Below are positions 42,737 to 62,459 of a DNA stretch of 64,000 bases, piece after piece. The position numbers and the translations under genes are program-made. Location: contig CAZKPX010000006.1 in NCBI GenBank assembly GCA_964554805.1, forward strand, positions 11,356-75,355, read 5' to 3'. Source of the stretch: an uncultured Candidatus Saccharibacteria bacterium (GTDB taxonomy: Bacteria > Patescibacteriota > CAZHWT01). The notes beneath the pieces were generated by a model. The model worked only from the letters and a program-made list of their open reading frames with translations. It did no database searches and was not told the DNA's origin. Numbering within the stretch: position 1 is the first letter of the stretch; every line of letters begins with the position of its first letter.

Positions 42737-42811
42737 GGGCCGGTAGCTCAATGGTAGAGCAGTTCCCTCTTAAGGAATTGGTTGGGGGTTCGAATCCCTC
42801 CCGGCTCACCA
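42737..42811 (+). tRNA. tRNA-Lys (anticodon CTT)
   Basis: GGGCCGG acceptor, D-arm GCTCAATGGTAGAGC, anticodon stem GTTCC/GGAAT with loop CTCTTAA, T-loop GGTTCGAATCC, encoded CCA. Confidence 0.85.
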
Positions 42812-42849
42812 AAAATCCCCCATGACTGAATGGTTGTAGGGGATTTTTG
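42812..42849 (+). terminator. rho-independent terminator after tRNA-Lys
   Basis: aatcccc...ggggatt stem followed by TTTT. Confidence 0.7.
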
Positions 42850-42938
42850 ATTCGTTATGGTTGATTCTCACTACGCGCACCATTTTCGTTAATGTATCAT
42901 ACACTCCCAGTAAGGTGTGTTTTTGCTATAATTAGATT

Positions 42939-43346
42939 ATGCAAAAAACAACTACTTTCTTAATGTTTGTCGGTGATCAGTGCGGTAAAGCCGAAGAGGC
43001 AATTAATTATTATGTGTCGCTTTTTCCTGACTCAGAAATAAAGTATGTTGACAAATGGAAACAAGATGAGCCAGGCGGTGAAGAAGGTTTGATAAAACAG
43101 GCTTCATTCTCTATTGCTGGTCAAGAGTATATGGCTAGCGAAAATAGAATGGACCACAAGTTTTCATTTACTCCAGCAATTTCAATTTATGTTAATTGTG
43201 ACAGTGAAGACGAGTTGCACAAGCTATTTGAAAAACTATCTGAGGGCGGTCAAGTCATGATGCCTGTGGATGGCTACGGATTTAGTAAAAAATTCGGCTG
43301 GGCTGCAGACAAATACGGAGTATCCTGGCAACTTAATCTCGCATAA
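42939..43346 (+). CDS. VOC-family protein (PhnB-like / 3-demethylubiquinone-9 3-methyltransferase-domain fold)
   Basis: 135 aa. 'TTFLMFVGDQCGKAEEAINYYVSLFPDSEI...FTPAISIYVNCDSEDELHKLFEKLSEGGQV...KFGWAADKYGVSWQLN' matches the PhnB-like glyoxalase-fold family pattern. Confidence 0.8.
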   Translation: MQKTTTFLMFVGDQCGKAEEAINYYVSLFPDSEIKYVDKWKQDEPGGEEGLIKQASFSIAGQEYMASENRMDHKFSFTPAISIYVNCDSEDELHKLFEKLSEGGQVMMPVDGYGFSKKFGWAADKYGVSWQLNLA

Positions 43347-43536
43347 TACTAATAAATTATTAGAATAATCTTGTTCAAAGGCGGTAGGTGACTTTTGGCA
43401 TTTCAAACGTGCTGTCAATAATTGCTTCTATAAGCTTAAGAGCATTCTATGACTCCTCGGTGCAAGGCTCGCAGATAGGAAATACTATTACTCGAAGAGT
43501 AAAATAGTATTCTCTATCGTCACAAAGTTATCTCTA

Positions 43537-43590
43537 CTGGCTCACCAAAAGTGGCATCATGAAAGTGATGTCTTTTTTGTTATAGTGATA
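43537..43590 (+). repeat. family-C repeat copy (tRNA 3'-end-like 'GGCTCACCAAAA' + hairpin + T-run)
   Basis: ctggctcaccaaaagtggcatcatgaaagtgatgtcttttttgtt. Upstream 43440-43536 carries the associated 'gcagataggaaatactatt...agtattctctatcgtcac' palindrome. Confidence 0.7.
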
Positions 43591-43743
43591 GACAAAGTTT
43601 TTGGATAGGTGTTCGATATTTTGATACCCTAATGCACTAATCGAACTCCATATTTTGTGTTTACTCCAAAACAGCGCCATTGTGGCGCTGTTTTGGTTTG
43701 AGTGACCATAGAAATCAAGTCGGTAGCTAAGCGCTAATCATGA

Positions 43744-43956
43744 CTACTTCTTTGGTCCACCGAAGCCATGGCGACCTGGGCCACCAAATCCGCTGCGGAG
43801 ATATTCCAGGGGAATGTCATTGTCTTCAGCCCATTGTGCAAGTTCATCGCGTTGTTGCTCCATAGCTTCACGACGCTCTTCACTCGATACGTCTTGCATT
43901 GAGTCGCGATTTGTCGCACTCTGGTCTTTCAATTCTTGCTGCTTGGCTACAATCAA
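43744..43956 (-). CDS. small hypothetical protein (Gly-rich C-terminus)
   Basis: 70-aa ORF. No motif recognised. Confidence 0.3.
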   Translation of the reverse strand: MIVAKQQELKDQSATNRDSMQDVSSEERREAMEQQRDELAQWAEDNDIPLEYLRSGFGGPGRHGFGGPKK

Positions 43957-44114
43957 GTCTTTTTGCTCAAACGTAAGTTCGCCATCATCAACAGCATCTT
44001 GTAGTTTATCTTCTTTGCGTACCTTTTAAAACAGTAGGCCTGCAGTCACTAATTGTGTCATATTGGCTCGCTAGACTCCTGTCTGTTCTGCTGTGTTTTT
44101 TGGGATATTCATAG

Positions 44115-45659
44115 GTGAATAGGGAGCGTGTGCATGCTTCAGGCAAGCTTATTGCTTTCTCTTATCAACCGAGTTACAGTATTGATATGAATATTTCTGA
44201 ATCTACTGCTAATACCACTGCTAATCAAGATGAGATAGTTAATAGCCCTACTCAGGATGCCAGTTTGGTGCCACCGGTTAAACAAAGGTCGTCTAAAAAG
44301 AAATACTGGATAGTCGGCAGTAGTCTGTTGCTGACCTGTTTGTTATTGGTTGGGGCTTGCTACTGGTTTATGGTGAGAAATAATCAGGATGAGCAGATTG
44401 CAGAGCAGACGGGATCTAGTCTCATGCCCACTCCACAAGTACCGGCTATAAGATTTGATCAATTACTAGCCACTCCAACAGCTTCTGTTACCCCTACTCC
44501 TACCATTTCGTCTCCTTCTATTGATCCGTCAGCATTATTTAAGGGATTATCAAGGGCTACCTTGCCGACGGCCAGCTTGCAAAATATTAATAGTGCTGAG
44601 GCGCGCAAAATATCATTACAAAATTATCGACTGCGTAGGGCTTCGATTGTCTTAGCCTCTGACCCAGCCGAGTTGCCTGTGTATGGATGGAATAATCCTA
44701 TTGCTAACGCAATGAGTAGTTCACTTGCCAGTGATCGCGAGCAAGATCGGAAAGTTATTTTAAGCATGGCCGCTCACTATGGCTTAACACTCCAAGATCG
44801 AAAATCTGAGGTTTTACAGCCATCGACAACCTATGCCGCTACCTTTAGCAAGAATGGCAAAGAGTACGAATTTCCTGATGTGCGAATAGGTACTCCTAAT
44901 TTTCGGGCAGCATTGCAGAAGTCGGGATCCTTTACGATGACCAAGGATCAGGCTGCTATAAAGGCCAAAGAGTATGTGTCCGTATCTGGGTTAGCGTACC
45001 CTAATATTGACTGGGATAACGCTGTGGTAGGTAGTCTGTTCAGTCAGTCGGGTAATGGTTCGTACATGGAGGTTGTTGTGCCGGTTCATTTGGGTAGTTA
45101 TAAAGTGTTATCAACTAATATAGCTGATGATATTAGAGTACTTTTTAATAATCAGGGGGTGTGGCAGGTGCAGTCGATGAATGGAACGGTATTTAATACC
45201 TATCCAACGTATGATACCTATCCATTAATTACTTTTAATCAGGCTAGAGATGAGGTAGCTCATATGGGCGGCTATCTGAATTGTGTGGATTTGGAGTCGT
45301 CTTCTCTGGGAGATGCCAGTTCTGATTATTACAATCATCACTGTAATCATGTAGCGACTACCAACAATAACAACACCGCATTTGGAAATTATGGCGGAGT
45401 GTTTCAAGATGTATCTTTAGCCAGAGTGGAGCTGGTCTATGCTAAGCTGCCTAATCCAGACTATTCTTTTGATAAGCCAACTTCCTCGGCTTACTACTTT
45501 TTGCCGGTATATCGCTTTACAGGTAGCGCTATTGCTAACTATGATTTGACTAAGACTACCCCTAACTCGGCGGGGCAGCCAACTAATGAATGGTCCAGAA
45601 TGCGTGATGGCAAACGACACCTATTCAGCATGATGGTGCCGGCAGTCAAGTTTGATTGA
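44115..45659 (+). CDS. membrane-anchored secreted hypothetical protein
   Basis: N-terminal TM 'YWIVGSSLLLTCLLLVGACYWFMV' followed by a 450-aa extracytoplasmic region. Confidence 0.5.
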   Translation: MNRERVHASGKLIAFSYQPSYSIDMNISESTANTTANQDEIVNSPTQDASLVPPVKQRSSKKKYWIVGSSLLLTCLLLVGACYWFMVRNNQDEQIAEQTGSSLMPTPQVPAIRFDQLLATPTASVTPTPTISSPSIDPSALFKGLSRATLPTASLQNINSAEARKISLQNYRLRRASIVLASDPAELPVYGWNNPIANAMSSSLASDREQDRKVILSMAAHYGLTLQDRKSEVLQPSTTYAATFSKNGKEYEFPDVRIGTPNFRAALQKSGSFTMTKDQAAIKAKEYVSVSGLAYPNIDWDNAVVGSLFSQSGNGSYMEVVVPVHLGSYKVLSTNIADDIRVLFNNQGVWQVQSMNGTVFNTYPTYDTYPLITFNQARDEVAHMGGYLNCVDLESSSLGDASSDYYNHHCNHVATTNNNNTAFGNYGGVFQDVSLARVELVYAKLPNPDYSFDKPTSSAYYFLPVYRFTGSAIANYDLTKTTPNSAGQPTNEWSRMRDGKRHLFSMMVPAVKFD

Positions 45660-45754
45660 AGCCTGACTTTTTCGTAATTTTTGGAGACCATCTACTCAGG
45701 AACACAAAAGATAAAACATGGCTTTTGTAAGATCATTTATCCAATAAAGCAAGT

Positions 45755-46260
45755 GTTCGAACTGTGCATCATCCGGCTCACCAAAACACCCCGATTGTCT
45801 TAGCGACGGTCGGGGTGTTTTTGTTAGTCTTGATGATTCTAACCGCGCACAGCGCCAGGTTCGTAGATAGGAAATACTGTTGCTTGAATAAAGCTGAGTA
45901 GTATTCCCTATCGTCACGCAGTTATCCCTCCCGGCTCACCAAGAATCCCTCATCATCTTAGCGATGGTGGGGGATTCTTTGTGATCTGGTCGGTATTTTG
46001 AATACTGCGTAGCATAGGGGGCGAAGCTAGGAAAGCACTATTTGAACAACGATTCAAATAGTGTGAACTAGCGTTACGAATCCGCCAGCTGGCGGAGGAG
46101 TTACCCTCCCCTACCCCGATTGTCTTAGCGATGGTGGGGGAGTTTTTGTTGTGTCGGTTGGATTCTAGCTGCGCGAAGCGCCTAGTTTGTAGATAATAAA
46201 TATTATTCTTAAAAAGCGTAATAATATCCCTTGTCGTCACGGAGTTATCCATCCTTGCAA
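45755..46260 (+). repeat. three consecutive family-C composite repeat copies
   Basis: 45755-45830, 45935-46000 and 46100-46160 each contain '(c)cggctcacca(a)aa...ttagcga(c/t)ggt(c/g)gggg...ttt(t)gtt'. The spacers contain a 'tagata(g/a)(g/t)aaatact...agtatt' palindrome and 'cgtcacg(c/g)agttatcc'. Confidence 0.8.
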
Positions 46261-46281
46261 TAAGAAATTGAATGTTATAAT

Positions 46282-46848
46282 TTGACGATGAAAACAGAAG
46301 AAAAACGATTTCAAAACATTTTAGAATCTTTTCCAAAGCTTGAGCCTATTATGGTAAAACTTGATGAAGCTCATATTCCATACGCAATTAGTGGAAGCGC
46401 TGCGCTTTATGTTCAGGGGCATGACCGAATGCCTAATGATGTGGATTTTATGTTACCAGATGAGGCGTTTTATAAAGCAAATAAGTTGTTTGACATAGAG
46501 CCGCAGTATATAGAGCGACCTTACAACAGTATGAATAAATCCACTCCCGTCGATGATGGTTCAGTAGAATTTCTTAATCGGTATACGGCTAGAGCTGATG
46601 GTCGTTCTTATTATTCCCCTCCATTAAAAACGATTCCTGTTGTATTTAACGGTAGAACGGCAGAGTTTATTCTTGCTGAAGAGATTGCCGCGTACAAGCT
46701 CATCAGTCGCCGCAATCACCATGGCGATATGGAGGATTTTAATAAATTATTTCAACATCCAAACTTTAATATGAGCTCTTTTTGGAAAATTGTGGATTCG
46801 ATTAATGCACGCAAGATAGTTGCTGACTTATTACTGGATAAGCATTAA
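46282..46848 (+). CDS. nucleotidyltransferase-fold protein (minimal Pol-beta-like NTase)
   Basis: 'ISGSAALYVQGHDRMPNDVDFML' fits the hG[GS]-x(9-13)-DhD NTase motif. 188 aa. Confidence 0.55.
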   Translation: MTMKTEEKRFQNILESFPKLEPIMVKLDEAHIPYAISGSAALYVQGHDRMPNDVDFMLPDEAFYKANKLFDIEPQYIERPYNSMNKSTPVDDGSVEFLNRYTARADGRSYYSPPLKTIPVVFNGRTAEFILAEEIAAYKLISRRNHHGDMEDFNKLFQHPNFNMSSFWKIVDSINARKIVADLLLDKH

Positions 46849-46939
46849 TAGCAGATGATGACTTTCTGCTCAAGTGGCTTTTATGCAGCCGTTTAATCTT
46901 CAAGTTCGAAGACTAGCTTGCTTCGCATATCTTCCAACC

Positions 46940-47020
46940 ACTCCAGCAGGTGTTCGAACTGTGAGTCATCGGGCTCACCAAAACACCCTGATTGTCTTAG
47001 CGACGGTCGGGGTGTTTTTG
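46940..47020 (+). repeat. family-C repeat copy with full tRNA-3'-like module
   Basis: ccactccagcaggtgttcgaactgtgagtcatcgggctcaccaaaacaccctgattgtcttagcgacggtcggggtgtttttgtt. Confidence 0.8.
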
Positions 47021-47121
47021 TTATGTTGGTCTGATTCTCTCGTGGGAAGCGGTGAACCATAGATTTTTGGATTCAAAAAAGGCCCGGACAGCGCGGTATG
47101 CGCTGCTCGGGCGAGGTTGAC

Positions 47122-47664
47122 TTAGGGATTATGGGAACACATAGGTTCCGGCATCCCGGTGTAAGGTTCAATAGTGAAGGCCGAGTCTCCCACCATGTTG
47201 GCCATCAAGCCATCAGCGGAGTAACTAACCCACATAAGTCCGTCTCCAGCGATAGACAGGAACGTGGTGACGACGTTGTCGGGCGGCATGCTGTTTACCG
47301 TTTGAGTGGTGCTCTCGACCACGTGAAAAACTTGGCCGTCGTCACTTACACCATAGACGGCAATCGTTTGAGTAGTAATACTAAACGTGCCGGGCTGGTC
47401 TGGCGAACCGGTTTGGGTAGTGACCACATAACCGGTCAGCTGCAGGTGCAAGGGGATGTCCATGCATGGTACATTGTAAGACCGTTCGGCCTCCACCATG
47501 GTCAAGCAAGTGATCTGCGTATTTTGGGCCTTGTCAAAGATTTGGCTACAGTCTACCTCCTGCAACGCTGCCGGAGGTATTGCTGCCGGATCTTCCTTGG
47601 CATTGGCTACTGAGACCGTTGAAGCCAAGGTCATCAAGAAAATAAACAAGAGTCGCCTAAGCAT
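47122..47664 (-). CDS. secreted hypothetical protein
   Basis: Signal peptide 'MLRRLLFIFLMTLASTVSVANA'. 180 aa. Confidence 0.5.
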   Translation of the reverse strand: MLRRLLFIFLMTLASTVSVANAKEDPAAIPPAALQEVDCSQIFDKAQNTQITCLTMVEAERSYNVPCMDIPLHLQLTGYVVTTQTGSPDQPGTFSITTQTIAVYGVSDDGQVFHVVESTTQTVNSMPPDNVVTTFLSIAGDGLMWVSYSADGLMANMVGDSAFTIEPYTGMPEPMCSHNP

Positions 47665-48065
47665 GACTATCTCCTACCGAAGTTCTAGCCGCGTCAGAAA
47701 CAAGCGCATTATATCATACTATGGGATTTATTTAAAGACATAGTAATGAGGGATTGAATTATGTTCATCAATGGTGGCAATGTATGTAAATGCTTAGACT
47801 TTGTTTGACTAAAAATAAAGTATTTATTTAGCAGTCAGGGAACATCCTGCTCACTTTCCACTATTAGCGCTCTACTCTGCCTGAGACCATTGTATCTCTA
47901 ATGGGTGGCAAGCAGTCTATGGAAATTCCCAAACAGCAGCATCTTTTGCAACAATTCTTTAGGTTGTTTGGGATGCTATGCGTAAACGGAGTCAAAAGCT
48001 TTGACTTACTATTAAGCCTCACGAGACTGGTAGAATATATTGCTTAAATAATATAGCCATTCCAC

Positions 48066-48250
48066 TAGGTGTTCGAACTGTGAGTTATGCGGCTCACCAA
48101 AATACCCCGATTGTCTTAGCGACGGTTGGGGTGTTTTGTTGGGCCGGTCAGAAGATCAAATATGTGCGGAGCACTAGGTTTGAAGATAAGAAATATTATT
48201 GCTTTAAAAAGCAAAATAATACTTCTTATCGTCATGAGGTGCAGCCGAAT
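48066..48250 (+). repeat. family-C composite repeat copy
   Basis: ggtgttcgaactgtgagttatgcggctcaccaaaataccccgattgtcttagcgacggttggggtgttttgtt plus a downstream palindrome. Confidence 0.8.
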
Positions 48251-48409
48251 TCCATTCTCCTGGCCCGATTGTCTAGTTGGGAGAATACTATTTAAATAAA
48301 CGACTCAAATAATCAAAGAATTGTTTTAGGTTTGATATCTGATTTTATTGGTCTAATCGATCTAGTATGCTTACTTGTAGCATGGTCCGATGAAGTATAT
48401 AGTTGAGAT

Positions 48410-49816
48410 ATGAGTACTCCTGAACCCTCTCTAGAGCAACAGCCTATTGATCAAGCTGAATTACCCGCTGATATTATTGAGACGCCAGTTGTAATTACTG
48501 CAAAACGAAGTAGGAAATGGCTTATTGTTATAGTCATTATGGTGCTTTGTGTGTTCGGTGCCGCTGCGGCTGTGCTGGTATATAAGCCTTTTAATATAGC
48601 TAGTATTACGCAAAAAAATAGTTCAACACCAATACCCACCCCCACCCCGCCAAACGATAAACTCCTCAAACCTCTAGATATCGCCTCTGTCCAACCTAAG
48701 CTTGTTATAGATACTAGAGACCAAAAAGTCTACACCATTGACCTAAACGGTCAGAACCGTCAACCAGCCAACTTCATTAATTTTGATAATGGCTACGGCA
48801 GCAATATGTATATTGTCGGTGGCAGTCGTCAATGTCTCTATTACTTCAAAGACAATAATGTTCACCGCAGCCTCATTGATGGTACGAGCGATAACCAAGT
48901 CACCTCTTTCCCAGAACAGTTATTTACCGGTCAGACCACCAAGCCAGACAATCTTACCCTAGGCAATGCCACTAAAACACCAACCCGAGTTCTCGGAACA
49001 ACCGGAACAACTGCCGCTCGCATTGGTCTGCTAATGGTTAACCATGATTGTAGCCAAGCAGTCATTAGTTTCAATAACAAAGTAGGGGACACCTCACTAC
49101 CTGCCTCAGCCCTCTATCTGATTGCCCCAGAAAAATTTGACCAACCGCAACTCTTAGATGACCAAGATCGCTATCAGGCCATTGCCTATGACACGTCCAA
49201 CATAGCTCACTTCATAACCAAGGACAATTCAGGATCCAGTTATATAAAATTTGATGGACAGACTTCTCTCTATAAACTAGACGGAACTAAGATAGTCCAA
49301 GAGAATACGCTATCAAACAATACCACTACCGCTACCTTTGGTAAATACATCAAAGAAATGACTGCTTCTAAGCTATTCATCACCATGCAATACAATGACC
49401 TCCAGACTCCTCAAGCCACAACCCAGCCCGCACTCTATGATGCCAAAGCCAATAATATAACCACCATCAGCACCCCTCGGAAGACCAACTCCATTAATAG
49501 TGCCTCCCTGCAGCCAGGAGGAAAGTACGTTGCCTACAGTCTCACTAGTAGCACTACAGATGGCTACAGTTATAATCAACTGTATCTCTATAATGTAGCA
49601 ACAGCCAAACAGGAAAAGGTGAACATAGGCGGCGAACAGCTTCGCCTAAATTACAATGGTCCTCTTTGGGTTAGCGACCAGGAGTTTATTATTCATACCG
49701 GTCAGCCGCGAGGTAATGTCTTTGACGGCGATATTAAGACATGCTCAACCGTGTACCTAAGTTGCCGCACCATCTATAGCAAAGCCGACTTTAACTTCTA
49801 CGGCCACAATCCATAG
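48410..49816 (+). CDS. membrane-anchored secreted hypothetical protein (possible beta-propeller C-domain)
   Basis: N-terminal TM 'WLIVIVIMVLCVFGAAAAVLVY'. Pro/Thr linker. About 400-aa extracytoplasmic domain. Confidence 0.5.
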   Translation: MSTPEPSLEQQPIDQAELPADIIETPVVITAKRSRKWLIVIVIMVLCVFGAAAAVLVYKPFNIASITQKNSSTPIPTPTPPNDKLLKPLDIASVQPKLVIDTRDQKVYTIDLNGQNRQPANFINFDNGYGSNMYIVGGSRQCLYYFKDNNVHRSLIDGTSDNQVTSFPEQLFTGQTTKPDNLTLGNATKTPTRVLGTTGTTAARIGLLMVNHDCSQAVISFNNKVGDTSLPASALYLIAPEKFDQPQLLDDQDRYQAIAYDTSNIAHFITKDNSGSSYIKFDGQTSLYKLDGTKIVQENTLSNNTTTATFGKYIKEMTASKLFITMQYNDLQTPQATTQPALYDAKANNITTISTPRKTNSINSASLQPGGKYVAYSLTSSTTDGYSYNQLYLYNVATAKQEKVNIGGEQLRLNYNGPLWVSDQEFIIHTGQPRGNVFDGDIKTCSTVYLSCRTIYSKADFNFYGHNP

Positions 49817-50189
49817 TTGGTCAGTTTACATTAGGGGTTGTTATGGATCATGCTCTACGTGCTGGGTGAAAGATAGGTGCAGAGTTACGAAGCGAAGCTC
49901 CCCTCCCGACCACTTTTCGTGACTGAACCCTACTCTATATTTCACCCGTTGGTGCTATACTCTGTGTGGTCCGATTTTTGGCTGCATTGCTGTTTATGCC
50001 TACTATAATGCTCTTTTTTGCTGTCGTTCTACTTTCAATGGCACGATCCTTTTGATTAAACTACGAAATCCTAATACCGATGCTTTGATATGTTAGTGCA
50101 AAAGATATGAGCGAGAAGGAAAGAATTAAACTGTCTGAAGAAACAAAACTGTAATTTTCAAGATTGCATTTCATGCACTATATCCTTCA

Positions 50190-50545
50190 GTCACTCCAAG
50201 TGGTGTTCGAACCAAATTTCACTAGGCTCACCAAGAATCCCTCATCATCTTAGCGATGGTGGGGGATTCTTTGTAGGCTGGTCGGTATTTGAATTCTGCA
50301 AAGCATGGGGGCGCAGCTAGGAGAATACTATTGTGCCAACGAGCACAATAGTATGAACTAGCGTTACGAATCCGCCAGCTGGCGGAGGAGTTACCCTCCC
50401 CTACTTTGATTGTCTTAGCGACGGTTGGGGTGTTTTATTGTGTCGGCCGGATTCTCGCAGCGCGGAGCGCTAGGTTCGTAGATAGGAAGAAACTATTGCT
50501 ATAACGATTTTAATAATTGGTACTACCGTCATGGAGCGAAGCGTA
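50190..50545 (+). repeat. two family-C composite repeat copies
   Basis: 50190-50280 and 50395-50450, with an intervening 'gaatccgccagctggcggagg' palindrome shared with family A. Confidence 0.8.
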
Positions 50546-50660
50546 ATTACCCTCTCGGCCTACCGCTATGCATATGCTTGTTTGTTGCTTTTTAAGGATT
50601 AAGCGAGTATATAAAAGATAGCTCAACCTGAGCGTTGCCCAGTCAGAAGGAGAAAGACTA

Positions 50661-50882
50661 ATGGGCATTGGTAATGGCGATGGTCGTGAGACCTTCGATA
50701 GCACCGTTTTCGAGTCGAAGGAGACGGACGATCCTCGAGGCGATCGTACCGATCACTACTTCAACTCGGGCAGTGGCCAAGGAGCAGAGCATGGTCATGT
50801 TGTAGAAATCCGCCACGATGATGGCTCGGTTTCTTACCCATACGTGCGTGATGCTGATGGCAATGTTTACGCCGACGACTGA
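50661..50882 (+). CDS. small acidic hypothetical protein
   Basis: 73 aa. Good RBS (AGGAGAAAG) 8 nt upstream of the ATG. Confidence 0.4.
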   Translation: MGIGNGDGRETFDSTVFESKETDDPRGDRTDHYFNSGSGQGAEHGHVVEIRHDDGSVSYPYVRDADGNVYADD

Positions 50883-54279: not shown

Positions 54280-54345
54280 ACCAAGAATCCCTCATCATCT
54301 TAGCGATGGTGGGGGATTCTTTGTAGGCTGGTCGGTATTTGAATT
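54280..54345 (+). repeat. family-C repeat copy
   Basis: cggctcaccaagaatccctcatcatcttagcgatggtgggggattctttgt, nearly identical to the 50228 copy. Confidence 0.8.
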
Positions 54346-54664
54346 CTGCAAAGCATGGGGGCGTAGCTAGGAGAATACTATTGTGCCAACGAGTACAATA
54401 GTATGAACTAGCGTTACGAAGCGAAGTTAAGTTACCCTCCCGGCTCACTTCTCATCTCAGCGCTCTCCCCTACATTAAGTCCATTTATCTCTGATAGCAG
54501 AGTTGACAGTCTATGGAAAATTAGCCACAGCGATCTGGCAAACAGAGTCGTTCTGAGATGCACGCCCGGAAGGGGGTGTTAGCGGGGTGTTAATCTGTAT
54601 CCTGCTTGTTGGTTGTTTTGCGTCAGCTTGACTAAGATTGCCGAAGTATGGCACACTGTAGGCA

Positions 54665-55276
54665 ATGAAACGCTTGCCTGTTCTATTTTTGAGTAGGTTC
54701 GGGTTGGTGGGATTGGTTGGGCTGTTGGTAGCAGTCCCCCCTGCTCTGGCGGCCTCTATCTCTTTACAAGGTCAGGCAGTATTCTCCAATACCGGAGGCT
54801 CTCTTCACTTTAGTGATTTCAATAGCAATGTGACTTTGGATACCGACACCGGTCATCTATCCGGCTATTCCTGGTCAGATGATAGCGGCTGGGTAGCGTT
54901 TGGTACGCAAGATAATGAGCAGGGTCCAGTTATAGTTAACCTAACCACGGGAGCCATTACCGGTTCGGCTAAAGTATTGGCTACCGACACCTATATTACC
55001 TTCACCGGCAACAGTAGCAACCTAAGCCTTGACACCCAAACAGGTCAGTTTACTGGCTACTTGTTTGACCCGGATATGGGTTGGGTTGAGTTTGGATCTT
55101 CCCCGCAAACAAGTGTAGTATTGGCGGCCGCTCTGCCGCTCGCCCCTACTCCAGCGCCTACTTCTGCCCTGCCCTTGCCTGAGACCGGAGCAGCTTTGGG
55201 GTTGGCGGCGGTAGTGGGCTGGATGCTTTTGGGAGGCGGTCTGATGAGCCGTGTATTACGGAAGAGGAATCTTTAG
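54665..55276 (+). CDS. LPXTG cell-wall-anchored surface protein (sortase substrate)
   Basis: Signal peptide. C-terminal 'LPETG' followed by hydrophobic 'AALGLAAVVGWMLLGGGLM' and 'RKRNL'. Confidence 0.7.
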   Translation: MKRLPVLFLSRFGLVGLVGLLVAVPPALAASISLQGQAVFSNTGGSLHFSDFNSNVTLDTDTGHLSGYSWSDDSGWVAFGTQDNEQGPVIVNLTTGAITGSAKVLATDTYITFTGNSSNLSLDTQTGQFTGYLFDPDMGWVEFGSSPQTSVVLAAALPLAPTPAPTSALPLPETGAALGLAAVVGWMLLGGGLMSRVLRKRNL

Positions 55277-55277
55277 T

Positions 55278-56234
55278 ATGACTATTTCCCTTGAATTGAA
55301 TAAAAAGTCTGGAGTGATAGTTGGGGTGAGCGTGATAGGGCTGATTGCTTTGGGCATGGCGGTGCAGACATTTGTGTCTCCTATTTTGACAGCTCAGGCA
55401 GATCAAGTAGGCGGCTCTCCCGATTCCGGCGTCGCCTCCCGCCTCACCCAAGCCTACAATTCAGTGGTTGACCAAGGCCACGGCGCTAGTGCAGTTCCGG
55501 AATGGACGCATGACTGGAGTACACAGTGGAACAGAATTATGCGTGCTGCCAGCTGGACGCCAGGCGGAAGTGCTGATCCCAATCAGGTACTTGCTGGTAA
55601 AACGTTTACGGCTGGCAGTCGCGGTTTGCAAACTGGCACCTATGACCCGATTGATACCATGTACGGTGGACTATCGTTACAAAACACTCATAATGACACC
55701 ATAGGCAACGCCACCTGGACAGAAACTAGCTCTGGTGGCACGCCAGCCAGTGTAATCCTGCGGACGGTGACTATTGCCCTGTCATCAAACAGTGTCATGC
55801 AAGACCAGCGCACCGGGTTGTATTGGACAGACCGCAGTGATACGGCTGTATCAAACAACAGCTTTGCCAATACTGCCGGGCAGACTGACCGGGTTAATCC
55901 GGATACTAATCACTGCAACTTTAACAGCCCAGGAGATGCTAATGAGTGGTGTAATACCGCCGACACTGGTGTATCGGCCAATGAGCTTTGCCTGAACTTA
56001 GAGCTTGATGATGGGACAGGCCTTAAAACTGACTGGAGGCTGCCTACCCAAAAAGAGTTGATGATTGCTTTTGTTAATGGGGCAGCTGCTAATCTAGCTA
56101 GCACCGGTGTCCACTACTGGTCTTCTACCCAGGGTTCGGCGACGGTTGCCTGGGGCGTGCTCTTGTTTAATGGCACCGCGGGCTACGGTACTAAAACGGA
56201 GGCCACGGTCCTTGCTCGGTGTGTCCGGGGATAA
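55278..56234 (+). CDS. DUF1566 (Lcl C-terminal-like) domain protein, N-terminal TM anchor
   Basis: 'WRLPTQKELMIAF...YWSSTQGSATVAWGVLLFNG...ARCVRG' matches the DUF1566 consensus pattern. Confidence 0.6.
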   Translation: MTISLELNKKSGVIVGVSVIGLIALGMAVQTFVSPILTAQADQVGGSPDSGVASRLTQAYNSVVDQGHGASAVPEWTHDWSTQWNRIMRAASWTPGGSADPNQVLAGKTFTAGSRGLQTGTYDPIDTMYGGLSLQNTHNDTIGNATWTETSSGGTPASVILRTVTIALSSNSVMQDQRTGLYWTDRSDTAVSNNSFANTAGQTDRVNPDTNHCNFNSPGDANEWCNTADTGVSANELCLNLELDDGTGLKTDWRLPTQKELMIAFVNGAAANLASTGVHYWSSTQGSATVAWGVLLFNGTAGYGTKTEATVLARCVRG

Positions 56235-56649
56235 AGGATGATAATCCGACCCAGTAGGGGCGGATTTCTCTCTCACCCCTTCCGGGTGTGCATCCCGGAA
56301 CGCCTTCGGGCAAGCGTGTGTTTTTGGTGGGCCGGGAGGGGAATTCCACTTTGTTCCATAAAGCTAGTTCATACGATTGAGCTCTTTGGCTCAATCGTAT
56401 TCTCCCAGCTTCCAAACCTGGCGCTTCGCGCGGATTCGATGGCGACCAGACGCAACAAAAAGTCTCCAGCACAAAAGTCCTGAGGGTTCTTTATTGTGTT
56501 TGGTTGGATTCTCACCTCCACTAGCTGGCAGAGAAGTTACCCTCCCTTGCTCCGGTCAGGACAACGATACCCTCTCCCGGCTCTTACTTTCCATGCTGGC
56601 GCTCCCCTATACTTTTGACCGGTTCATCTTAGATAAGATTGTTAGCAGT

Positions 56650-57090
56650 CTATGGAAAATGAGCACCATTAACCTGGCAAGCAGAGGTGTTCTGAGATGC
56701 ACGCCCGGAAGGGGTGAAAATTGTTTCAACTATATCAACTGGTATGTATTCAGATTCTAAAATCGATCGACAAATTTCTGATGTCTGCTGTACTCTAACC
56801 TTATTGCTGCGAATAAGCACCACCCCACCAGAGTATTGATCGCGATTGGCTAGATAAAAATCCCGTACATCTAATCCTAATTGGGCTGCTTGCTCTTCTC
56901 CTTCGCGGGTTAGGGGTTGGTTTCTATCATTCTCTAGGTGAGGCTCATTTTCTGCGTGCCTGATGGCAATAATATGCTGCAGGGTGGGAGCAGGCCCTTT
57001 ATTATTGTAGAGTCTTTGATAGCTTGGTTGGTGCGCTTCTTCATTTTGGATTAGGTTATTTTCATGCGGACCAGGGTATTCATTGGACAT
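56650..57090 (-). CDS. histidine phosphatase (SixA/PGAM-like); C-terminus encoded by a family-D repeat
   Basis: 'IIAIRHAENE' RHG-type motif. The last about 27 codons run into repeat D3, suggesting insertional truncation. Confidence 0.5.
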   Translation of the reverse strand: MSNEYPGPHENNLIQNEEAHQPSYQRLYNNKGPAPTLQHIIAIRHAENEPHLENDRNQPLTREGEEQAAQLGLDVRDFYLANRDQYSGGVVLIRSNKVRVQQTSEICRSILESEYIPVDIVETIFTPSGRASQNTSACQVNGAHFP

Positions 57091-57554
57091 TATGTATGTA
57101 ACTCCTTAACGCATCCCATAGGCTTATTATCGCTTATTCTGGCAGATAGATGCAATCCGCCTTCTGTGCGAGCACCTTTCCCTATTTTAGTCCGGTTATC
57201 TCCAATAATAAGATTAGTGGTCTATGGAAATTCGAGACCTTAAATGGGCAAGCTAGGTAGTTTGAGTCGCTCACTTGTAAGGGGTGAAATAACTAAGAGA
57301 TATCAGGATCTTGTGTGGGAATTGATTGACGCTTGTCGGACTTGAGATGTTTTATGGATGCTTGATGGTATGTAAGCATTTTAATGACTCTTATGCTTTG
57401 GGTGGTGCTGTTTATTGCACAACAAGCCGAAAGCGAGTATGGGGAAAATAGAAGTAGAAAAGGTTAAATGCATAATAAAAAAACTGGGTAGGTCAGATTT
57501 TGATTAGGTTTTTATCTAGAGAACTTTTTGATTTAGGATTGAACATCTTTCACT

Positions 57555-57640
57555 TAGTCATTCCAGCTGGTGTTCGAACTGTGAGTTATTCAGCTCACCA
57601 TAAAAACCTCAAGTCTTCCGACTTGGGGTTTTTATGTTAT
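57555..57640 (+). repeat. family-C repeat copy (divergent)
   Basis: cattccagctggtgttcgaactgtgagttattcagctcaccataaaaacctcaagtcttccgacttggggtttttatgtt. Confidence 0.75.
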
Positions 57641-57893
57641 TCGGAGGGTAGAACTGCCAGGTTCGGGGCCATAGGAAGTCATTATTGCAAATCGATTGCA
57701 ATAAGAAATGCACCAGGCGATAGTACGAAGTGTCAACTCTCTACTCAATAAATATGTATTAAAATATATATTTGTTACATTTAACCCTGATAAATTTTAT
57801 ATACATAGGTAGTTGTGGTTAAGCGTCAGAGGCAACCATTTGGTAAGTGTGAAAGGTGTCTTGAGACATATTTATTTCTGAATAACTTGACTC

Positions 57894-60320
57894 ATGCTTG
57901 CCCGTAAGCCTAAAATAATGCTGATGCTTATTCGGAAGTCGCTTCTTAAAAAGCTAACTTTAATTGCACTATCTACTATTGTTTTGGCTAGCATAGCTCC
58001 TTTATCTACCACCCAGGCTGATTCGGATCCATCATTTCAATGGTCGGAGTCTTCCATGCCGCCCATCGGTCGATTGGCAGCGCAATGGAGAGGGCTCTCG
58101 GTTAGCAGTGATGGGCAGGTGATTATCGCTGGTGCGGCTTATGGCAGAGTCTATGTCTCTCGTGATCGAGGTGATACCTGGAATGAGGTTCGGCCTGCTG
58201 GAGACACAACCAAAGAATGGCAAGGTATTGCTACTAGCGGTGATGGGCAGACGATGATGGTAGGCGTAGCTCACGGCAGTGGTTTGGGTAGACTTTATCT
58301 TTCTAAGGATGCAGGCGCTAGTTGGATAGACCAGCCGTTGGCGGGAGATATAGACAGAAAGTGGCGGACAGCTTCTATAAGTTATGATGGGCAAACTATT
58401 TTTGCCGCTGATAGTGGCGGTAGGGCTTATTTATCTAGGAACGGCGGCGATGACTGGGTTGAGGTTCAGCCCAATGGAGATGCGAATAGAAGCTGGTACT
58501 CTTCGGGAATGAGTCGAGATGGGCAAATCATTGTAGCTGGGGTAGCTAGCGGCCGAGCATTTTATTCGAACGATAATGGAGTTTCGTGGATTGAGGTGCA
58601 GCCTCACGGAAATTCTAATCAAACATGGTATGCCGCCTCAGTGAGCGGCAATGGCCAATCGGTTTTGTTCGGTGGCAATACTGCGAGGTTGCACATTTCA
58701 ACGGATGATGCTCAAACGTGGGCACCAATCCCCTTTGATGTGGATACGGGTATGGCCTCCCTAGCTGTAGATATCGCTGATAACGGCACGATTCTAGCTG
58801 GTAGAGATGGGGGCATACCTTATATTTCTTATAACTTTGGACAATCATGGGCAATTGCTCCCGACCTTCCGTCGAGCTCTTGGCGAGCAGTTGGCATAAG
58901 CGATGACGGGCAAACGCTTGTAACTGGTGGTACAGCAGGATACCTTTATATATCCAAAGATGCTGGCATTAGCTGGCAATCGACTGGTCCTTTGGTACAT
59001 GATTCTGGCTTTATCTCAACTGCTGTTAATCATGATGGCCATGTCAAGATTGCTGGAACAGGTGGGCGCCTTTATCGCTCACTAAACAGAAGCAATAATT
59101 GGGCAGAGGTTAGGCCAGCTGGTGACAGCAATCAAACATGGTATACCGCCTCTATTATGACTGATGGTCAAACCATATTAGCTGGAAGTAACACGCGACT
59201 GTATCGCTCAATCGACGGCGGGGATAGTTGGTCTGAGATGCAACCAGCGGGTGATGTTAATAGAGTCTGGTTCACAACTTCTTTAAGTAGTGATGGAGAG
59301 ACTATATTAGCTGGTGTCAATAGTGCCAGTAATGGTCGCCTGTATCGTTCTGTTGATGGTGGAGTCACTTGGGGCGAAGTTAGGCCAGGAGGAGATACTA
59401 ACTATACCTGGCGGACCACTGCCATGAGTAGTGATGGACAGGTCATGCTGGCTTCAGTGACTGGTGGCCACCTTTACCGCTCTGTTGATAGTGGAGACAC
59501 TTGGTCTGAAATACAGCCAGAAAGCGATGCTGCTCAAACATGGAGGACCACCTCTATAAGTAGTGATGGGCAAGTAATGCTGGCTGGTCACACTGCTCGT
59601 TTATACAGATCTGTCAATGGTGGTAATGCATGGAGTGAGGTTCAACCTGCAGGTGATGCGGATGGTAATTGGCGAACATCTATGTCCTCCAGTGGTCAGA
59701 TTATGGTGGCAGCCTCTTATGGTGGTCGGATATACCGTTCAGTTGATGGAGGCGACACATGGAGTCAGGTGCAACCAGGCGGAGATATCAATTCTAACTG
59801 GCATCCTATTTCGGTGAGTGGTGATGGCCATACAGTCTTGGCTGGGGTAGATGGTGGTGGATTGTATCTAGGCGTCACAAGCCCTGCATCTCCTGTACTA
59901 ATGATTGTATCTGGCGCTCAATTTATTGCTGATTCAATGATTGCGCTGACTGGCACTGCTCCTGCTAATGCTACTGTTGAAGTTGAAGTCCATTCGACTC
60001 CTCAGTCTGGCACGGTTGTAGCCAATGGTAGCGGCCAATGGTCATGGATTCCTCCGCTAAAACTTGAACCAGGCTCTCATTCCTATAGGGCTAGGGTGAT
60101 TGATGGTGATGTTATTGGCGCTTGGAGTGTGTGGACGGAATTTCAAGTTTTAGCTGCTATAACCAACAATCCCTCTAATTCATCCAGTCAACAAATACCT
60201 AATACGGGATCTGATTCTTTGGTAATTCGCTATAGTGGCCTTGTATTACTGGGACTTGGTGTAGCTAGGTTTTATGTGATTTTAAGGCGCAAGCGGCTAG
60301 ATGCGCCTGAATTATATTAA
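57894..60320 (+). CDS. BNR/Asp-box beta-propeller surface protein with IPNTG sortase sorting signal
   Basis: At least 14 repeats of 'G(R)LY(R)SxDxGxTW(S)E(V)QP' (Sx[DN]xGxTW). Signal peptide. C-terminal 'IPNTG' + hydrophobic + 'RRKRL'. Confidence 0.75.
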   Translation: MLARKPKIMLMLIRKSLLKKLTLIALSTIVLASIAPLSTTQADSDPSFQWSESSMPPIGRLAAQWRGLSVSSDGQVIIAGAAYGRVYVSRDRGDTWNEVRPAGDTTKEWQGIATSGDGQTMMVGVAHGSGLGRLYLSKDAGASWIDQPLAGDIDRKWRTASISYDGQTIFAADSGGRAYLSRNGGDDWVEVQPNGDANRSWYSSGMSRDGQIIVAGVASGRAFYSNDNGVSWIEVQPHGNSNQTWYAASVSGNGQSVLFGGNTARLHISTDDAQTWAPIPFDVDTGMASLAVDIADNGTILAGRDGGIPYISYNFGQSWAIAPDLPSSSWRAVGISDDGQTLVTGGTAGYLYISKDAGISWQSTGPLVHDSGFISTAVNHDGHVKIAGTGGRLYRSLNRSNNWAEVRPAGDSNQTWYTASIMTDGQTILAGSNTRLYRSIDGGDSWSEMQPAGDVNRVWFTTSLSSDGETILAGVNSASNGRLYRSVDGGVTWGEVRPGGDTNYTWRTTAMSSDGQVMLASVTGGHLYRSVDSGDTWSEIQPESDAAQTWRTTSISSDGQVMLAGHTARLYRSVNGGNAWSEVQPAGDADGNWRTSMSSSGQIMVAASYGGRIYRSVDGGDTWSQVQPGGDINSNWHPISVSGDGHTVLAGVDGGGLYLGVTSPASPVLMIVSGAQFIADSMIALTGTAPANATVEVEVHSTPQSGTVVANGSGQWSWIPPLKLEPGSHSYRARVIDGDVIGAWSVWTEFQVLAAITNNPSNSSSQQIPNTGSDSLVIRYSGLVLLGLGVARFYVILRRKRLDAPELY

Positions 60321-60574
60321 AGGTTAAGCCTACCTGCTGACTATGGAGTATCAGACTTACCACTAAGCATTGAAGATACCGCACAAAGCGCAGTCAATAG
60401 AGCAAAGGAGGTACCCTAGTGACCAGCTGCTCTGGTCTGATGCGTTAAGCCGAGCAACGCAAAGCCATCACTGAATCTGGATCTATGGCTTGATCGGCTT
60501 TAAATATCTTTGAGGGACGATTTTCCAGACTATACTAAGTGTGAGGCTGTAGTTTTTTGTCGTAAATCTTCCAG

Positions 60575-60660
60575 CCACTCCAAAAGGTGTTCAAACTGTG
60601 AGTCATCCGGCTCACCAAAAGGGACATCGCGAAAGTGATGTCTTTTTTGTTGTTATAATA
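60575..60660 (+). repeat. family-C repeat copy
   Basis: ccagccactccaaaaggtgttcaaactgtgagtcatccggctcaccaaaagggacatcgcgaaagtgatgtcttttttgtt. Confidence 0.8.
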
Positions 60661-60762
60661 ATGAAAACTATGTCTGACCGAGTTCGATAATTTGACACTA
60701 AGAGGGATAATATCGAACTCTGCCAGCTATTCTACAGCTCATCTGTAATTTTTTGTAATAAA

Positions 60763-60816
60763 TACTGTACATTATGAGTACAGTATTATTGACATTTCTT
60801 TATAAATATGTAAAAT
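60763..60816 (+). promoter_or_regulatory. operator-like inverted repeat (TACTGTAC-N7-GTACAGTA) abutting a TTGACA-16-TAAAAT promoter
   Basis: IR at 60763-60785. -35 at 60789-60794. -10 at 60811-60816. The ATG lies at 60823, so the mRNA would be (near-)leaderless. Confidence 0.55.
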
Positions 60817-60822
60817 GAACTT

Positions 60823-61521
60823 ATGGCTAATATTACCTATGTAATAGAAAAATTAATAAAGCTTCGAGAGCAAAACAGCTATACTCAAGAAGAGATTGCG
60901 CAAACTCTCGGATTGAGCAGGCAGAGTTATATCCTCGTCGAAAAAGGTCAGCGAGATCTAAATACTCAAGAACTAGAGCTTCTTGCCGCCAAATACGGTA
61001 TTGATATCGCTGATCTCTTTGATGAAATTCCTAACCTAGAAAAGTTTAAGCAAATGTATTTTGTATGCTTGGAGTTCGCTGCTAATAGTCATGGGAATGT
61101 TACCAAAACTATGCTAGCGAAGCTCCTCTATCTTGCAGACTTTGCAAATTTTTATGAAGCACTGGAGCCTATGAGTGGGGTTAAATATCGTCGCATGGAA
61201 TATGGGCCAGTAGCAGATATTTTTTTCTCAATGACCGACGACTTGCTTGAATCGGGTAAGATTAAAGTGCAAGTGCTCGACCGAGGGGCACAAATGATAT
61301 CTCTTAACACCAGAGAGGCGAAGACTAATCTGCTTTCCAACGAAGAACTTGATCGCATAAAGACTATTTGTGAAGCATGGAAAGACAAGCCAACTCAAGA
61401 TATCATTAACTTCACTCACGAACAACTGCCCTGGAAAATGTGTCGTAATGGTGAGTATATTCCATACTCTCTTATCATACAGGAAGATCCAGAGCATGTT
61501 TACCAACCGCTTACCAGATAA
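60823..61521 (+). CDS. HTH-XRE + Panacea (DUF4065/SocA-like) domain protein; PanA-type antitoxin candidate
   Basis: N-terminal 'YTQEEIAQTLGLSRQSYILVEKGQRDLNTQELELLAAKYGIDIADLF' Cro/C1 HTH. C-terminal 'LAKLLYLADFANFY...EYGPVADIFF...EQLPW' Panacea pattern. Confidence 0.75.
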   Translation: MANITYVIEKLIKLREQNSYTQEEIAQTLGLSRQSYILVEKGQRDLNTQELELLAAKYGIDIADLFDEIPNLEKFKQMYFVCLEFAANSHGNVTKTMLAKLLYLADFANFYEALEPMSGVKYRRMEYGPVADIFFSMTDDLLESGKIKVQVLDRGAQMISLNTREAKTNLLSNEELDRIKTICEAWKDKPTQDIINFTHEQLPWKMCRNGEYIPYSLIIQEDPEHVYQPLTR

Positions 61522-61921
61522 TATCGATTACAGAGTAGTGTTTAGTGATTTTGCTCAAAGATACTTCATTAAACAATTTTCTAAGAATTATCCTGGTAAG
61601 CAGTGGACAATAACGCAAGATTCTATCTTTGAGCAGCTGAAGCGTGTTCATGCGATACAGAGCACTCAGCAGGTGGATGAACTAAAGAATTGTGCTGATT
61701 GCCTGCTCTTTAAATACGATTTTGCTGTTGCCAAGACTAATGTATCGGCAAAAGCCTCTGGGAACCGCTGTGTAATCTTCTTGGATAAGTTGACTCAACA
61801 ACAAACAATTCTGGTCCTGTATCATAAGTCGCATTTACCCAAGAATAAACACGAGAATCAGTATATTGATGCTGTCCTTAAGGACGAATTCCCTCAATTT
61901 TATGCTCGACTTCATGTTTAA
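61496..61921 (+). CDS. small toxin candidate (RelE/ParE-like features, unclassified) overlapping the Panacea gene end
   Basis: ATG at 61496 overlaps the upstream stop by 26 nt. 141 aa, basic. 'YRVVFSDFAQRYF...RCVIFLDKLTQQQTILVLYHKSH' is vaguely RelE/ParE-like. The six-frame ORF (61370-) would start earlier, but the internal Met fits the operon geometry. Confidence 0.45.
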   Translation: MFTNRLPDNIDYRVVFSDFAQRYFIKQFSKNYPGKQWTITQDSIFEQLKRVHAIQSTQQVDELKNCADCLLFKYDFAVAKTNVSAKASGNRCVIFLDKLTQQQTILVLYHKSHLPKNKHENQYIDAVLKDEFPQFYARLHV

Positions 61922-61994
61922 TGAGTGGGTATTGGTGGTGGATCAAGATCATCTTTGTTGATCTGTAGGCTCTCATATAAAATCTAGTCTCTGT

Positions 61995-62100
61995 CTTAAA
62001 CTCTCTAGCCACTCCAATAAAAGTTCGATATGAGCATCACTCAGGTCACCAAAACTCCCTCATCATCTTAGCAATAGTGGAGGAGGTTTTGATGTGTTGG
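61995..62100 (+). repeat. family-C repeat copy (degenerate) fused to family-D element at 62210-62330
   Basis: ccactccaataaaagttcgatatgagcatcactcaggtcaccaaaactccctcatcatcttagcaatagtggaggaggttttgatgtgttgg. Confidence 0.7.
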
Positions 62101-62459
62101 TCAGTATTTGAATCCTGTGAAGCAAGGGGGCGTAGCTAGGAAAGCCCTATTTAAACAACGATTCAAATAGTATTCCTTATCGCCACGAATCCGCCAGCTG
62201 ACGGAGAAGGCACCCTCCCCTCTCCTTGACCATTTCATCTTAGATAAGATTGTTAGCAGTCTATGGAAAATGAGCACCATTGATCTGGCAAGCAGAGGTG
62301 TTCTGAGATGCACACCCGGAAGGGGTGAGAAGATACAAGTGCGGGATAAACTTGGGTAGGAATGGTGGGTGGAGTGGTTGAGAGCGTGAGTGGAGGGCTT
62401 GGACAGGAGTGCTCTGGATGTGTAAACTGTATACTAACAGACAAGCACGCGCGCTTCTT

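Follow-up and report, generated by a model that had tools for sequence, protein, structure and literature searches.

How could a run of mostly single accessory genes gather directly behind one tRNA gene? The question is raised by a 64,000-nt stretch of DNA (hereafter the window) from an uncultured Candidatus Saccharibacteria bacterium (contig CAZKPX010000006.1, positions 11,356 to 75,355, of assembly GCA_964554805.1). Patescibacteria, including Saccharibacteria, have tiny genomes and are thought to be poor in mobile elements, yet strains differ in their surface proteins, toxins and defence genes. In the window, a tRNA-Lys(CTT) gene is followed by an array of small gene units, which a first-pass annotation, made from the letters alone, had described as at least ten copies of a repeat beginning with a tRNA 3'-half-like module. 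We consider it probable that the 3' end of this tRNA gene is an integration hot spot, at which units that now lack a recombinase accumulated by serial site-specific insertion (accretion). The candidate docking gene and the hairpin next to it are:

42737-42811, + strand: tRNA-Lys(CTT), docking gene (attB side); ARAGORN; Rfam RF00005, 72.1 bits
42812-42850, + strand: terminator hairpin H0, directly 3' of the tRNA; 92% identical to positions 11331-11368 of contig L045 and conserved in contig L038, both from relatives

The sequence repeated along the array is the last 9-18 nt of the tRNA gene. Its core, GGCTCACCA, occurs nine times without mismatch (the tRNA's own copy and eight more), always on the + strand and within 42803-60617, against 0.51 copies expected by chance from dinucleotide shuffles of the window; two further copies carry one mismatch (AGCTCACCA at 57592 and AGGTCACCA at 62043). 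Beyond the tRNA itself, this makes ten core junctions on the + strand (43539-62051), all co-oriented with tRNA-Lys and all in the 19.6 kb on its 3' side. The longest copy, 18 of 18 nt at 45924-45941, closes a palindrome module. A scan of the window found no core in the 42.7 kb upstream of tRNA-Lys, and no repeats of the 3' ends of the window's other three tRNAs. The repeat array reported at first pass is therefore confirmed, with ten cores where 0.5 would be expected and none upstream.

The sequences that abut the cores differ from one junction to the next. On the left, seven of the ten arms belong to one family, T, one is a divergent form, T', and two (cores ending at 43547 and 45941) are of type P, in which up to 18 of 18 nt of the tRNA 3' end come after the last part of a long hairpin:

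45724-45783, 46922-46980, 48040-48099, 50174-50233, 57544-57600, 60557-60617 and 61991-62051, + strand: T arms, detected with a profile
54213-54283, + strand: T' arm, divergent

The T profile recovers its seven copies in the window with E-values from 2e-13 to 1.6e-19, all on the + strand at 45.7-62.1 kb, and none at 1-42.7 kb; the 32-mer by which the repeat had first been described has five matches with three or fewer mismatches, where none would be expected. The count of at least ten copies thus holds for the shared core (ten) and not for the T module (seven and one divergent T'). The description of T as tRNA-like has to be given up as well: with the tRNA it has only CCGGCTCACCA in common, and its TTCGAA lies 5 nt off register. 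From GTTCGAA/TTCGAA to GGCTC, the distance is 19 nt in every T arm, compared to 14 nt in the tRNA, which places the motif 5 nt farther out. T as a tRNA fragment or pseudo-tRNA is ruled out, as neither ARAGORN nor Rfam recognises it and just 11 nt are shared with the tRNA.

On the right, directly after CCA, every arm presents an A-tract, a G+C-rich stem and a T-tract, i.e., an intrinsic terminator. These hairpins fall into the families H0, H, H2, H3 and H4; H3 is followed by an inverted-repeat module, S, and this pair is seen in the 43548-43660 region, again at 60618-60725, and in L045 at 11496-11594. The terminator-like hairpin noticed at first pass is borne out: the core-flanking hairpins are the top-scoring terminator-like sites of the region, and compensatory changes are found in 9 of 13 pairs, with many G-U pairs possible on the + strand only. 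A terminator immediately behind CCA in all right arms is what would be expected of an element that is obliged to restore the tRNA gene.

More importantly, left and right arms are freely combined. H2 is found after P (45941), after T (50233, 62051) and after T' (54283); H3 follows P (43547; L045 11495) and T (60617); T is succeeded by H at three junctions; and H0 follows the true tRNA (window, L038) as well as a foreign arm (L045 11330). Altogether, the left arms (tRNA, T, T', P, other) and the right arms (H0, H, H2, H3, H4) form at least ten combinations. Common to every junction is only (CC)GGCTCACCA, and homology stops within a few nt of CCGGCTCACCA. The free combination of arms, together with this break in homology, points to the core as a site of crossover, and a shared stretch of only 9-11 nt is too short for RecA-type, homologous exchange. 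Judged by their sequence, the junctions are the signature of hybrid attachment sites formed by site-specific recombination at a tRNA 3' end.

The cores delimit ten units of 0.16-4.05 kb each. In the following list, U denotes a structured unit of about 175 nt that usually follows the terminator, R a module of about 120-140 nt, and ORF an open reading frame; a minus sign marks cargo on the minus strand.

42803-43551, + strand: Unit 1; U split by a PhnB/VOC gene, 42939-43346 (PF06983, 9e-33), into a 5' half, 42803-42883, and a 3' half with long hairpin P, 43458-43551 (nhmmer profile positions 1-82 and 75-180); core 43539-43547
43548-45783, + strand: Unit 2; H3 43548-43580; S about 43590-43660; 70-aa ORF 43744-43956 (-); 514-aa membrane-anchored protein 44115-45659; T 45724-45783; core 45775-45783
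45784-45941, + strand: Unit 3, without cargo, 158 nt; H; U with hairpin P (E 1.6e-38); 18-nt perfect copy of the tRNA 3' end 45924-45941
45942-46980, + strand: Unit 4; H2; Q-type U 45933-46116 (core partly deleted); H; U 46113-46264 (core decayed); 188-aa gene 46282-46848; T 46922-46980; core 46972-46980
46981-48099, + strand: Unit 5; H; 5' half only of U 46972-47040; secreted 180-aa protein 47122-47664 (-); T 48040-48099; core 48091-48099; Logan contig L049 is colinear across this unit
48100-50233, + strand: Unit 6; H; U 48091-48266; 468-aa membrane-anchored protein 48410-49816; T 50174-50233; core 50225-50233
50234-54283, + strand: Unit 7; H2; U 50225-50408; H; U 50407-50569; 73-aa and 99-aa ORFs; R 51441-51580; truncated polyprenyl synthetase 51657-52421 (-); 84-aa ORF 52491-52745 (-); Fic protein 53023-54132; T' 54213-54283; core 54275-54283
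54284-57600, + strand: Unit 8; H2; U 54275-54450; R 54465-54582; LPxTG-type 203-aa protein; Lcl_C protein 55251-56234; inverted U 56322-56489; R 56604-56721; 146-aa ORF (-); R-like 57198-57289; T 57544-57600; core variant AGCTCACCA 57592-57600
57601-60617, + strand: Unit 9; terminator hairpin; U 57593-57738; 808-aa BNR/sortilin-repeat surface protein 57894-60320; T 60557-60617; core 60609-60617
60618-62051, + strand: Unit 10; H3; S; HTH+SocA_Panacea antitoxin 60823-61521 and overlapping 138-aa partner 61505-61921; T 61991-62051; core variant AGGTCACCA 62043-62051
62052-62330, + strand: last recognisable composite; H2-like hairpin; U 62044-62221; R 62215-62330

The last composite sits upstream of an FGE-sulfatase-domain gene (62460 on) that runs past the window end. 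The cargo is accessory and heterogeneous, with a G+C content at third codon positions of 0.30-0.61, and five cargo genes lie on the minus strand. The gene content listed at first pass mostly stood, with PhnB/VOC, Fic, Lcl_C, BNR/sortilin, HTH+SocA_Panacea and FGE-sulfatase genes present; the gene called an 'NTase' (46282-46848) had no match in Pfam, NCBIfam or PHROG. The polyprenyl synthetase (51657-52421, - strand) is missing the first ~47 profile positions and is preceded by the separate 84-aa ORF (52491-52745, - strand), and thus looks like a truncated or frameshifted cargo gene.

The U unit, which aligns in 12 copies from three genomes, has a fixed order of parts: a 5' strand, GGGCYGG, that matches the 5' end of the tRNA, a 4-bp mini hairpin, an irregular hairpin of 20-25 bp, CGTCAC, and a tRNA-like 3' end, CCCTCC-CGGCTC-ACCA. 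In the copy at 48091-48266, for example, the acceptor-like strands read GGGCCGG...CTGGCCC. The long irregular hairpin is the second imperfect palindrome of the first-pass annotation, which was thus real; overlooked there was that the conserved palindrome, the terminator and the 5' acceptor-like strand form one tRNA-like unit. In the proposed five-helix structure, 84.9% of cells pair, compared to 38-56% with slid partners, and 20 pairs show double changes, compared to 7-13 in the slid controls; the observed values were reached in none of 500 shuffles. The weakest helix is the acceptor-like closing helix, in which changes are mostly one-sided. With a U profile, nine full copies are found on the + strand and one inverted, plus split or partial copies; about 11 U lie in 19.6 kb, and none in the 42.7 kb upstream of tRNA-Lys. 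Over the sequence available, the restriction of the repeats to this locus and strand is strict. A profile scan of about 90 kb of other Patescibacteria loci found neither T nor U. A known RNA family or tRNA pseudogene was considered for U, R and T and rejected: none of the three matched Rfam at E<=10, and ARAGORN called just the four true tRNAs over the window.

Two arrangements of U deserve mention. Behind the Lcl_C gene, at 56273-56489 on the minus strand, a complete U (56322-56489, E 6e-24) and an R end are inverted, which points to an inversion or to an oppositely inserted unit. Furthermore, 146 nt comprising H2 and the start of U are 99% identical between 50225-50370 and 54275-54420, which indicates a recent duplication or gene conversion; the block order across these repeats (50225, 54275) rests on the original assembly, in which short-read mis-ordering is possible.

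Relatives at the same locus were sought by a synteny walk from the DoxX-like gene that precedes tRNA-Lys. Its homologues P0014 and P0005 led to tRNA-Lys loci (contigs L036 and L038), and the homologues P0008, P0020, P0070 and P0026 were not syntenic. In L038, tRNA-Lys and its terminator are followed by a 1421-aa gene, with no further cores. L036 carries tRNA-Lys, terminator, a U-like unit and one 111-aa gene, closed by GGCTCACCA and an arm to which the window's T' is homologous (76% over 72 nt). The T pattern had one real match and 16 chance matches among 185,579 species genomes; the real match, L013, is a Candidatus Saccharibacteria metagenome-assembled genome (MAG), of which L045 is a wider view. 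Here, four cores are present (at least three units plus an island), with other cargo including an APH-type kinase. The window and L045 share a core-H0-U-core-H3-S block at 78-92% identity; the VOC gene is absent in L045, and the U homologous to the split U of Unit 1 is uninterrupted (11322-11497). Occupancy of the DoxX-like-gene/tRNA-Lys locus therefore ranges from none (L038) and one (L036) to at least three plus an island (L045) and ten (window), in a comparison that spans distant relatives only. T and U in these relatives occur only after tRNA-Lys or beside cores. On the right flank, the FGE-domain gene has no counterpart after tRNA-Lys in the relatives.

With the tRNA 3' end as the only common core, the arms shuffled at that point and occupancy graded in relatives, serial att-site duplication from repeated integrations, as had been suggested from the sequence, is the best fit. 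In the mechanism that we propose, a site-specific recombinase would cut and rejoin at or just left of CC|GGCTCACCA. Each unit would bring at its left end a replacement tRNA 3' end (CCGGCTCACCA) and a terminator, usually with U next, which would keep the tRNA whole and terminated; one to five cargo genes would form its middle, some with a promoter module (R) of their own, and an element-specific arm (T, T' or P) its right end, abutting the next core. Each arrival would restore an intact tRNA and displace older units downstream. Where the crossover lies, in which order the units arrived, that they are mobilised in trans and which recombinase acted are what we infer here.

As to the enzyme, a candidate is provided by L045, in which the gene for a large serine recombinase of 521 aa (Resolvase 128 bits, Recombinase 59 bits, Zn_ribbon_recom 31 bits) stands, on the reverse strand, at the head of an island of about 11 kb without internal cores; the right end of the island is a foreign arm, followed by core and H0. 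This island of a relative had escaped the first-pass annotation. Positions 1-11320 of L045 correspond to CAZQWH010000002.1 46823-58140, from a Candidatus Saccharibacteria MAG with assembly accession GCA_964597145.1, and the island ends at the tRNA-Lys 3' core; its genes include those for an SRA-HNH nuclease and a STAND-like NTPase, besides several of unknown function, and it looks defence-type. Among proteins in IMG/VR, the L045 recombinase has just one relative, at 26% identity. That a large serine recombinase took part in building the array is quite possible, if short of probable; the enzyme most likely to have done so would be one carried on a full-size member, such as that heading the L045 array. 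In serine integrases, the motif contacted by the zinc ribbon domain is displaced in attP relative to attB (PMC3783163). The 5-nt shift of TTCGAA in T would fit this displacement.

Several observations speak against serial insertion by such an enzyme, or limit how far it can be pressed. Over the whole window, none of the ORFs tested has an integrase, transposase or resolvase domain, and tblastn detected no relic of the L045 recombinase there, so that the first-pass statement that integrase and transposase are missing is correct for these 64 kb. The link to a recombinase comes from a single relative, whose retrieved sequence ends short of the expected left junction at tRNA-Lys. Neither the T' arms nor the arm next to the L045 island show the 5-nt shift. 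With serine integrases, attL is normally not used again; serial insertion would consequently need a regenerated attB or a permissive, CcrAB-like enzyme. Moreover, serine integrase att sites measure about 50 bp, which leaves the conserved 175-nt structured U unexplained. In the public collections that were scanned, the family is all but missing, and its restriction to the locus was judged on 64 kb of an 88-kb contig, whose source MAG stems from runs SRR16798008 and SRR16798009. Finally, neither an excised circle nor a read from an empty site was seen, and the only other assemblies of the same organism (Logan contigs L001, L002 and L049, from two runs) are 100% identical, colinear and broken inside the repeats, and show no strain polymorphism; the presence or absence of cassettes that had been looked for thus distinguishes the distant relatives at this site and not these assemblies.

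U could be a working mimic of tRNA-Lys, i.e., a self-renewing landing pad (pseudo-attB), so that each insertion makes the next docking site and insulates the real tRNA, in a kind of integron-like gene capture by tRNA mimicry with a large serine recombinase acting in trans. Its terminator would then be followed by a closing helix that resembles an acceptor stem, a mini hairpin in the manner of a D arm, a long hairpin where a tRNA has its anticodon arm, and a 3' strand of T-stem/acceptor type with CCA at its end. We regard this proposal as rather improbable. If it were true, U would show that genes can be inserted one after another and in order by a simple natural design.

The units of the window would be either mobilised in trans or fixed relics. 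The foremost alternative to small mobile units is that T-core represents the right end of a once at least 10-kb, recombinase-bearing island, which later lost the recombinase and most genes by internal deletions in a streamlined genome, so that the small units themselves would never have moved. The one member found to bear a recombinase is indeed about 11 kb long (L045), and decay is visible in the truncated polyprenyl synthetase, the eroded cores at 54435 and 56575, the stops in T and the half U units. However, both ends are kept in nearly every unit, whereas repeated deletions would always have to spare the ends, and the cargo-less 158-nt unit (45784-45941) and the one-gene cassette of L036 resemble small entities rather than leftovers. 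We consider the relic explanation unlikely; the retained ends, the 158-nt unit and the L036 cassette favour small units moving in trans. Mobilisation in trans, raised at first pass, is therefore the reading favoured here.

Cassettes might also be exchanged by natural transformation and homologous recombination, with T, H, U and R as portable homology and no need for a recombinase, for which the minimal mobile elements of Neisseria offer a parallel. Modules of 60-180 nt that are up to 99% identical within the array, and 78-92% identical to another genome while the cargo differs, would suit such exchange, as would a window without recombinase. Yet the homology of unlike arms ends at the 9-11-nt core, which is below the needs of RecA, and neither the tRNA 3'-end core nor the co-orientation with the tRNA nor the start of the array at the tRNA is explained. 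As the origin of the array this route is improbable; homologous recombination may have added to the shuffling.

The integron-like cassette array considered at first pass fares worse. It would require a dedicated integrase whose gene lies beyond the window, cassettes that lack promoters and enter at a primary site by the tRNA, and hairpins that act as attC-like folds. The units are in fact mostly single-gene, mostly co-oriented and split by structured imperfect palindromes, and the restriction of G-U pairs to the + strand suggests a single-strand fold. No tyrosine recombinase was found, however, in the 42 kb upstream, in the array or in the 10 kb around the site in L036 and L038; specifically, Phage_integrase was absent from the window ORFs and from within 10 kb of the site in both relatives, and no intI lies beside the array. 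In addition, a strong terminator follows every core, several units carry R modules that resemble promoters, five cargo genes point the opposite way, and the junction is a tRNA 3' end instead of an R''/R' (GTTRRRY) core, with no attC-type site apparent by eye and no R' core in the hairpins on inspection; an integron is thus very improbable. Just as improbable are dispersed repeats of the repetitive extragenic palindromic (REP), bacterial interspersed mosaic element (BIME) or miniature inverted-repeat transposable element (MITE) type, terminator modules unlinked to mobility, or tRNA-like RNAs that punctuate transcripts for RNase P/Z, which would account for structure with compensatory changes, for a terminator role, and for an R fragment (2891-2964) and the CCGCCAGCTGGCGG palindrome (5063, 13518) outside the array, but not for seven T and about 11 U in 19.6 kb against none in the 42.7 kb upstream, for T and U in relatives only after tRNA-Lys or by cores, or for the lack of any matching Rfam or tRNA model.

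Among known systems, accretion at tRNA-Lys is most closely paralleled by the ssrA islands of Dehalococcoides, which occur in tandem downstream of a small stable-RNA gene, are delimited by repeats of the last 20 bp of that gene and have a conserved motif upstream of each repeat (McMurdie et al. 2011, PMC3146451). About half of them lack an integration module and were proposed to be cis-mobilisable, and others carry a serine recombinase of ~540 aa (DsiB) on the reverse strand next to attL (PMC3146451). Alike are the tandem islands bounded by a 3' end and the layout of L045, which matches that of DsiB by attL. In contrast, the array described here uses tRNA-Lys and not the transfer-messenger RNA (tmRNA) gene, its units measure 0.16-4 kb instead of ~10-20 kb, none of ten has an integration module, and a terminator and the ~175-nt U are added, in a patescibacterial host. 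In staphylococci, pseudo-elements of the cassette chromosome (SCC) that lack ccr depend on CcrAB large serine recombinases from other elements. SCC and pseudo-SCC likewise lie in tandem at one site, rlmH/orfX, with short direct repeats between them (e.g., PMC7029136), but they target the 3' end of a protein gene, are 10-60 kb long and lack tRNA mimicry and a terminator module; also, a serine recombinase is here only inferred.

The tycheposon islands of Prochlorococcus share repeated integration at tRNA genes, by which older elements are pushed inward, as well as scattered partial tRNAs, degraded elements and a host whose streamlined genome is poor in classical mobile elements (Hackl et al., bioRxiv 10.1101/2020.12.28.424599). 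Tycheposons, however, have tyrosine recombinases and replication modules, and their islands are not regular single-gene arrays with composite arms. Streptococcal cis-mobilisable elements (CIMEs), known together with the accretion of integrative and conjugative or mobilisable elements, including some specific for tRNA-Lys(CTT), are flanked by att sites, lack recombination genes, are kept in tandem with an integrase-bearing neighbour and are mobilised by it (PMC5704250); they differ in using tyrosine integrases, in being much larger and in usually numbering one or two as opposed to ten. Chromosomal integrons also stockpile mostly single-gene cassettes with structured repeats at one locus, but the present array, without IntI, attI or a common promoter logic and with a terminator in every unit, is not a member of that family. 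Tandem, recombinase-less islands at RNA genes are thus known; the novelty of the present array lies in units as small as single genes, in the conserved unit that mimics a tRNA and in the lineage of the host.

A compact site that stockpiles single accessory genes would offer a concrete route for variation in surface-protein, toxin and defence genes, and the cargo of the array includes Fic, a toxin-antitoxin pair, sortase substrates and PhnB. T, U and the core can serve as search models for such arrays, and for their recombinase, elsewhere. Among the collections scanned, JGI metagenomes gave 11 matches, all by chance; the T, H and R patterns found nothing related in IMG/VR, and the tRNA 3' end matched only phage tRNA arrays and one unrelated partial tRNA there. 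An unrelated viral contig (L034, IMGVR_UViG_3300033073_001260) bears, at about 1697 on the reverse strand, part of a tRNA 3' half that ends in TCCCTCCCGGCTCACCAA and has the look of a classical attachment site used by phages at a similar tRNA.

T has a further property. On its minus strand, five copies in the window (45724-45783, 46922-46980, 48040-48099, 60557-60617 and 61991-62051) and that at L045 12580-12642 keep a conserved peptide, GEPDDSQFEHLLEWLED(L)R, in a frame in which synonymous differences are in excess (0.26, compared to 0.10-0.16 in other frames); two copies differ at five sites, and all five differences are synonymous. The frame has no start codon and in four arms a stop at a Trp codon (TGA in 50174-50233), and a profile search of 5.8 billion proteins found no homologue, so that T as part of a real protein was rejected. 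The peptide could be an alternative C-terminal tail of a leftward-reading gene that extends across the attachment site in an excised circle; one possibility is that this gene is the recombinase of the element, its tail being formed only in the excised circle.

R modules are distributed as follows:

51441-51580, 54465-54582, 56604-56721 and 62215-62330: R, about 120-140 nt
57198-57289 and 47880-47930: weaker copies of R
2891-2964: weaker, partial copy of R, outside the array

R starts with a sigma70-like TTGACC-16-TATGAT, followed by a stem-forming conserved leader, TAGCAGTCTATGGAAA...GGTGTTCTGAGATGCACGCCCGGAAGGGGTGA. Four to five copies are present in the array, and a co-oriented gene does not always follow. 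Dyad symmetry around the core, assessed by eye, was weak and inconsistent and was not used. The 7-mer GGTGTTC occurs nine times on the + strand, always in the array (43608-62297; five in T, one in S, three in R), and is absent from the + strand of the first 42.7 kb; a protein may bind to it. The extra hairpin of the Q-type U is formed by the palindrome (C)TCCGCCAGCTGGCGGAG, which is also found between genes, far from the array, at 5063-5079, 13518-13535 and 13670-13687. Upstream of the array, the window encodes very large repetitive surface-type proteins of 1606 and 1079 aa with VWA/fn3 domains (5288-13344 and 18727-22056, both on the - strand), and tandem coding repeats rich in Pro, Thr and Glu are located at 23500-24400.

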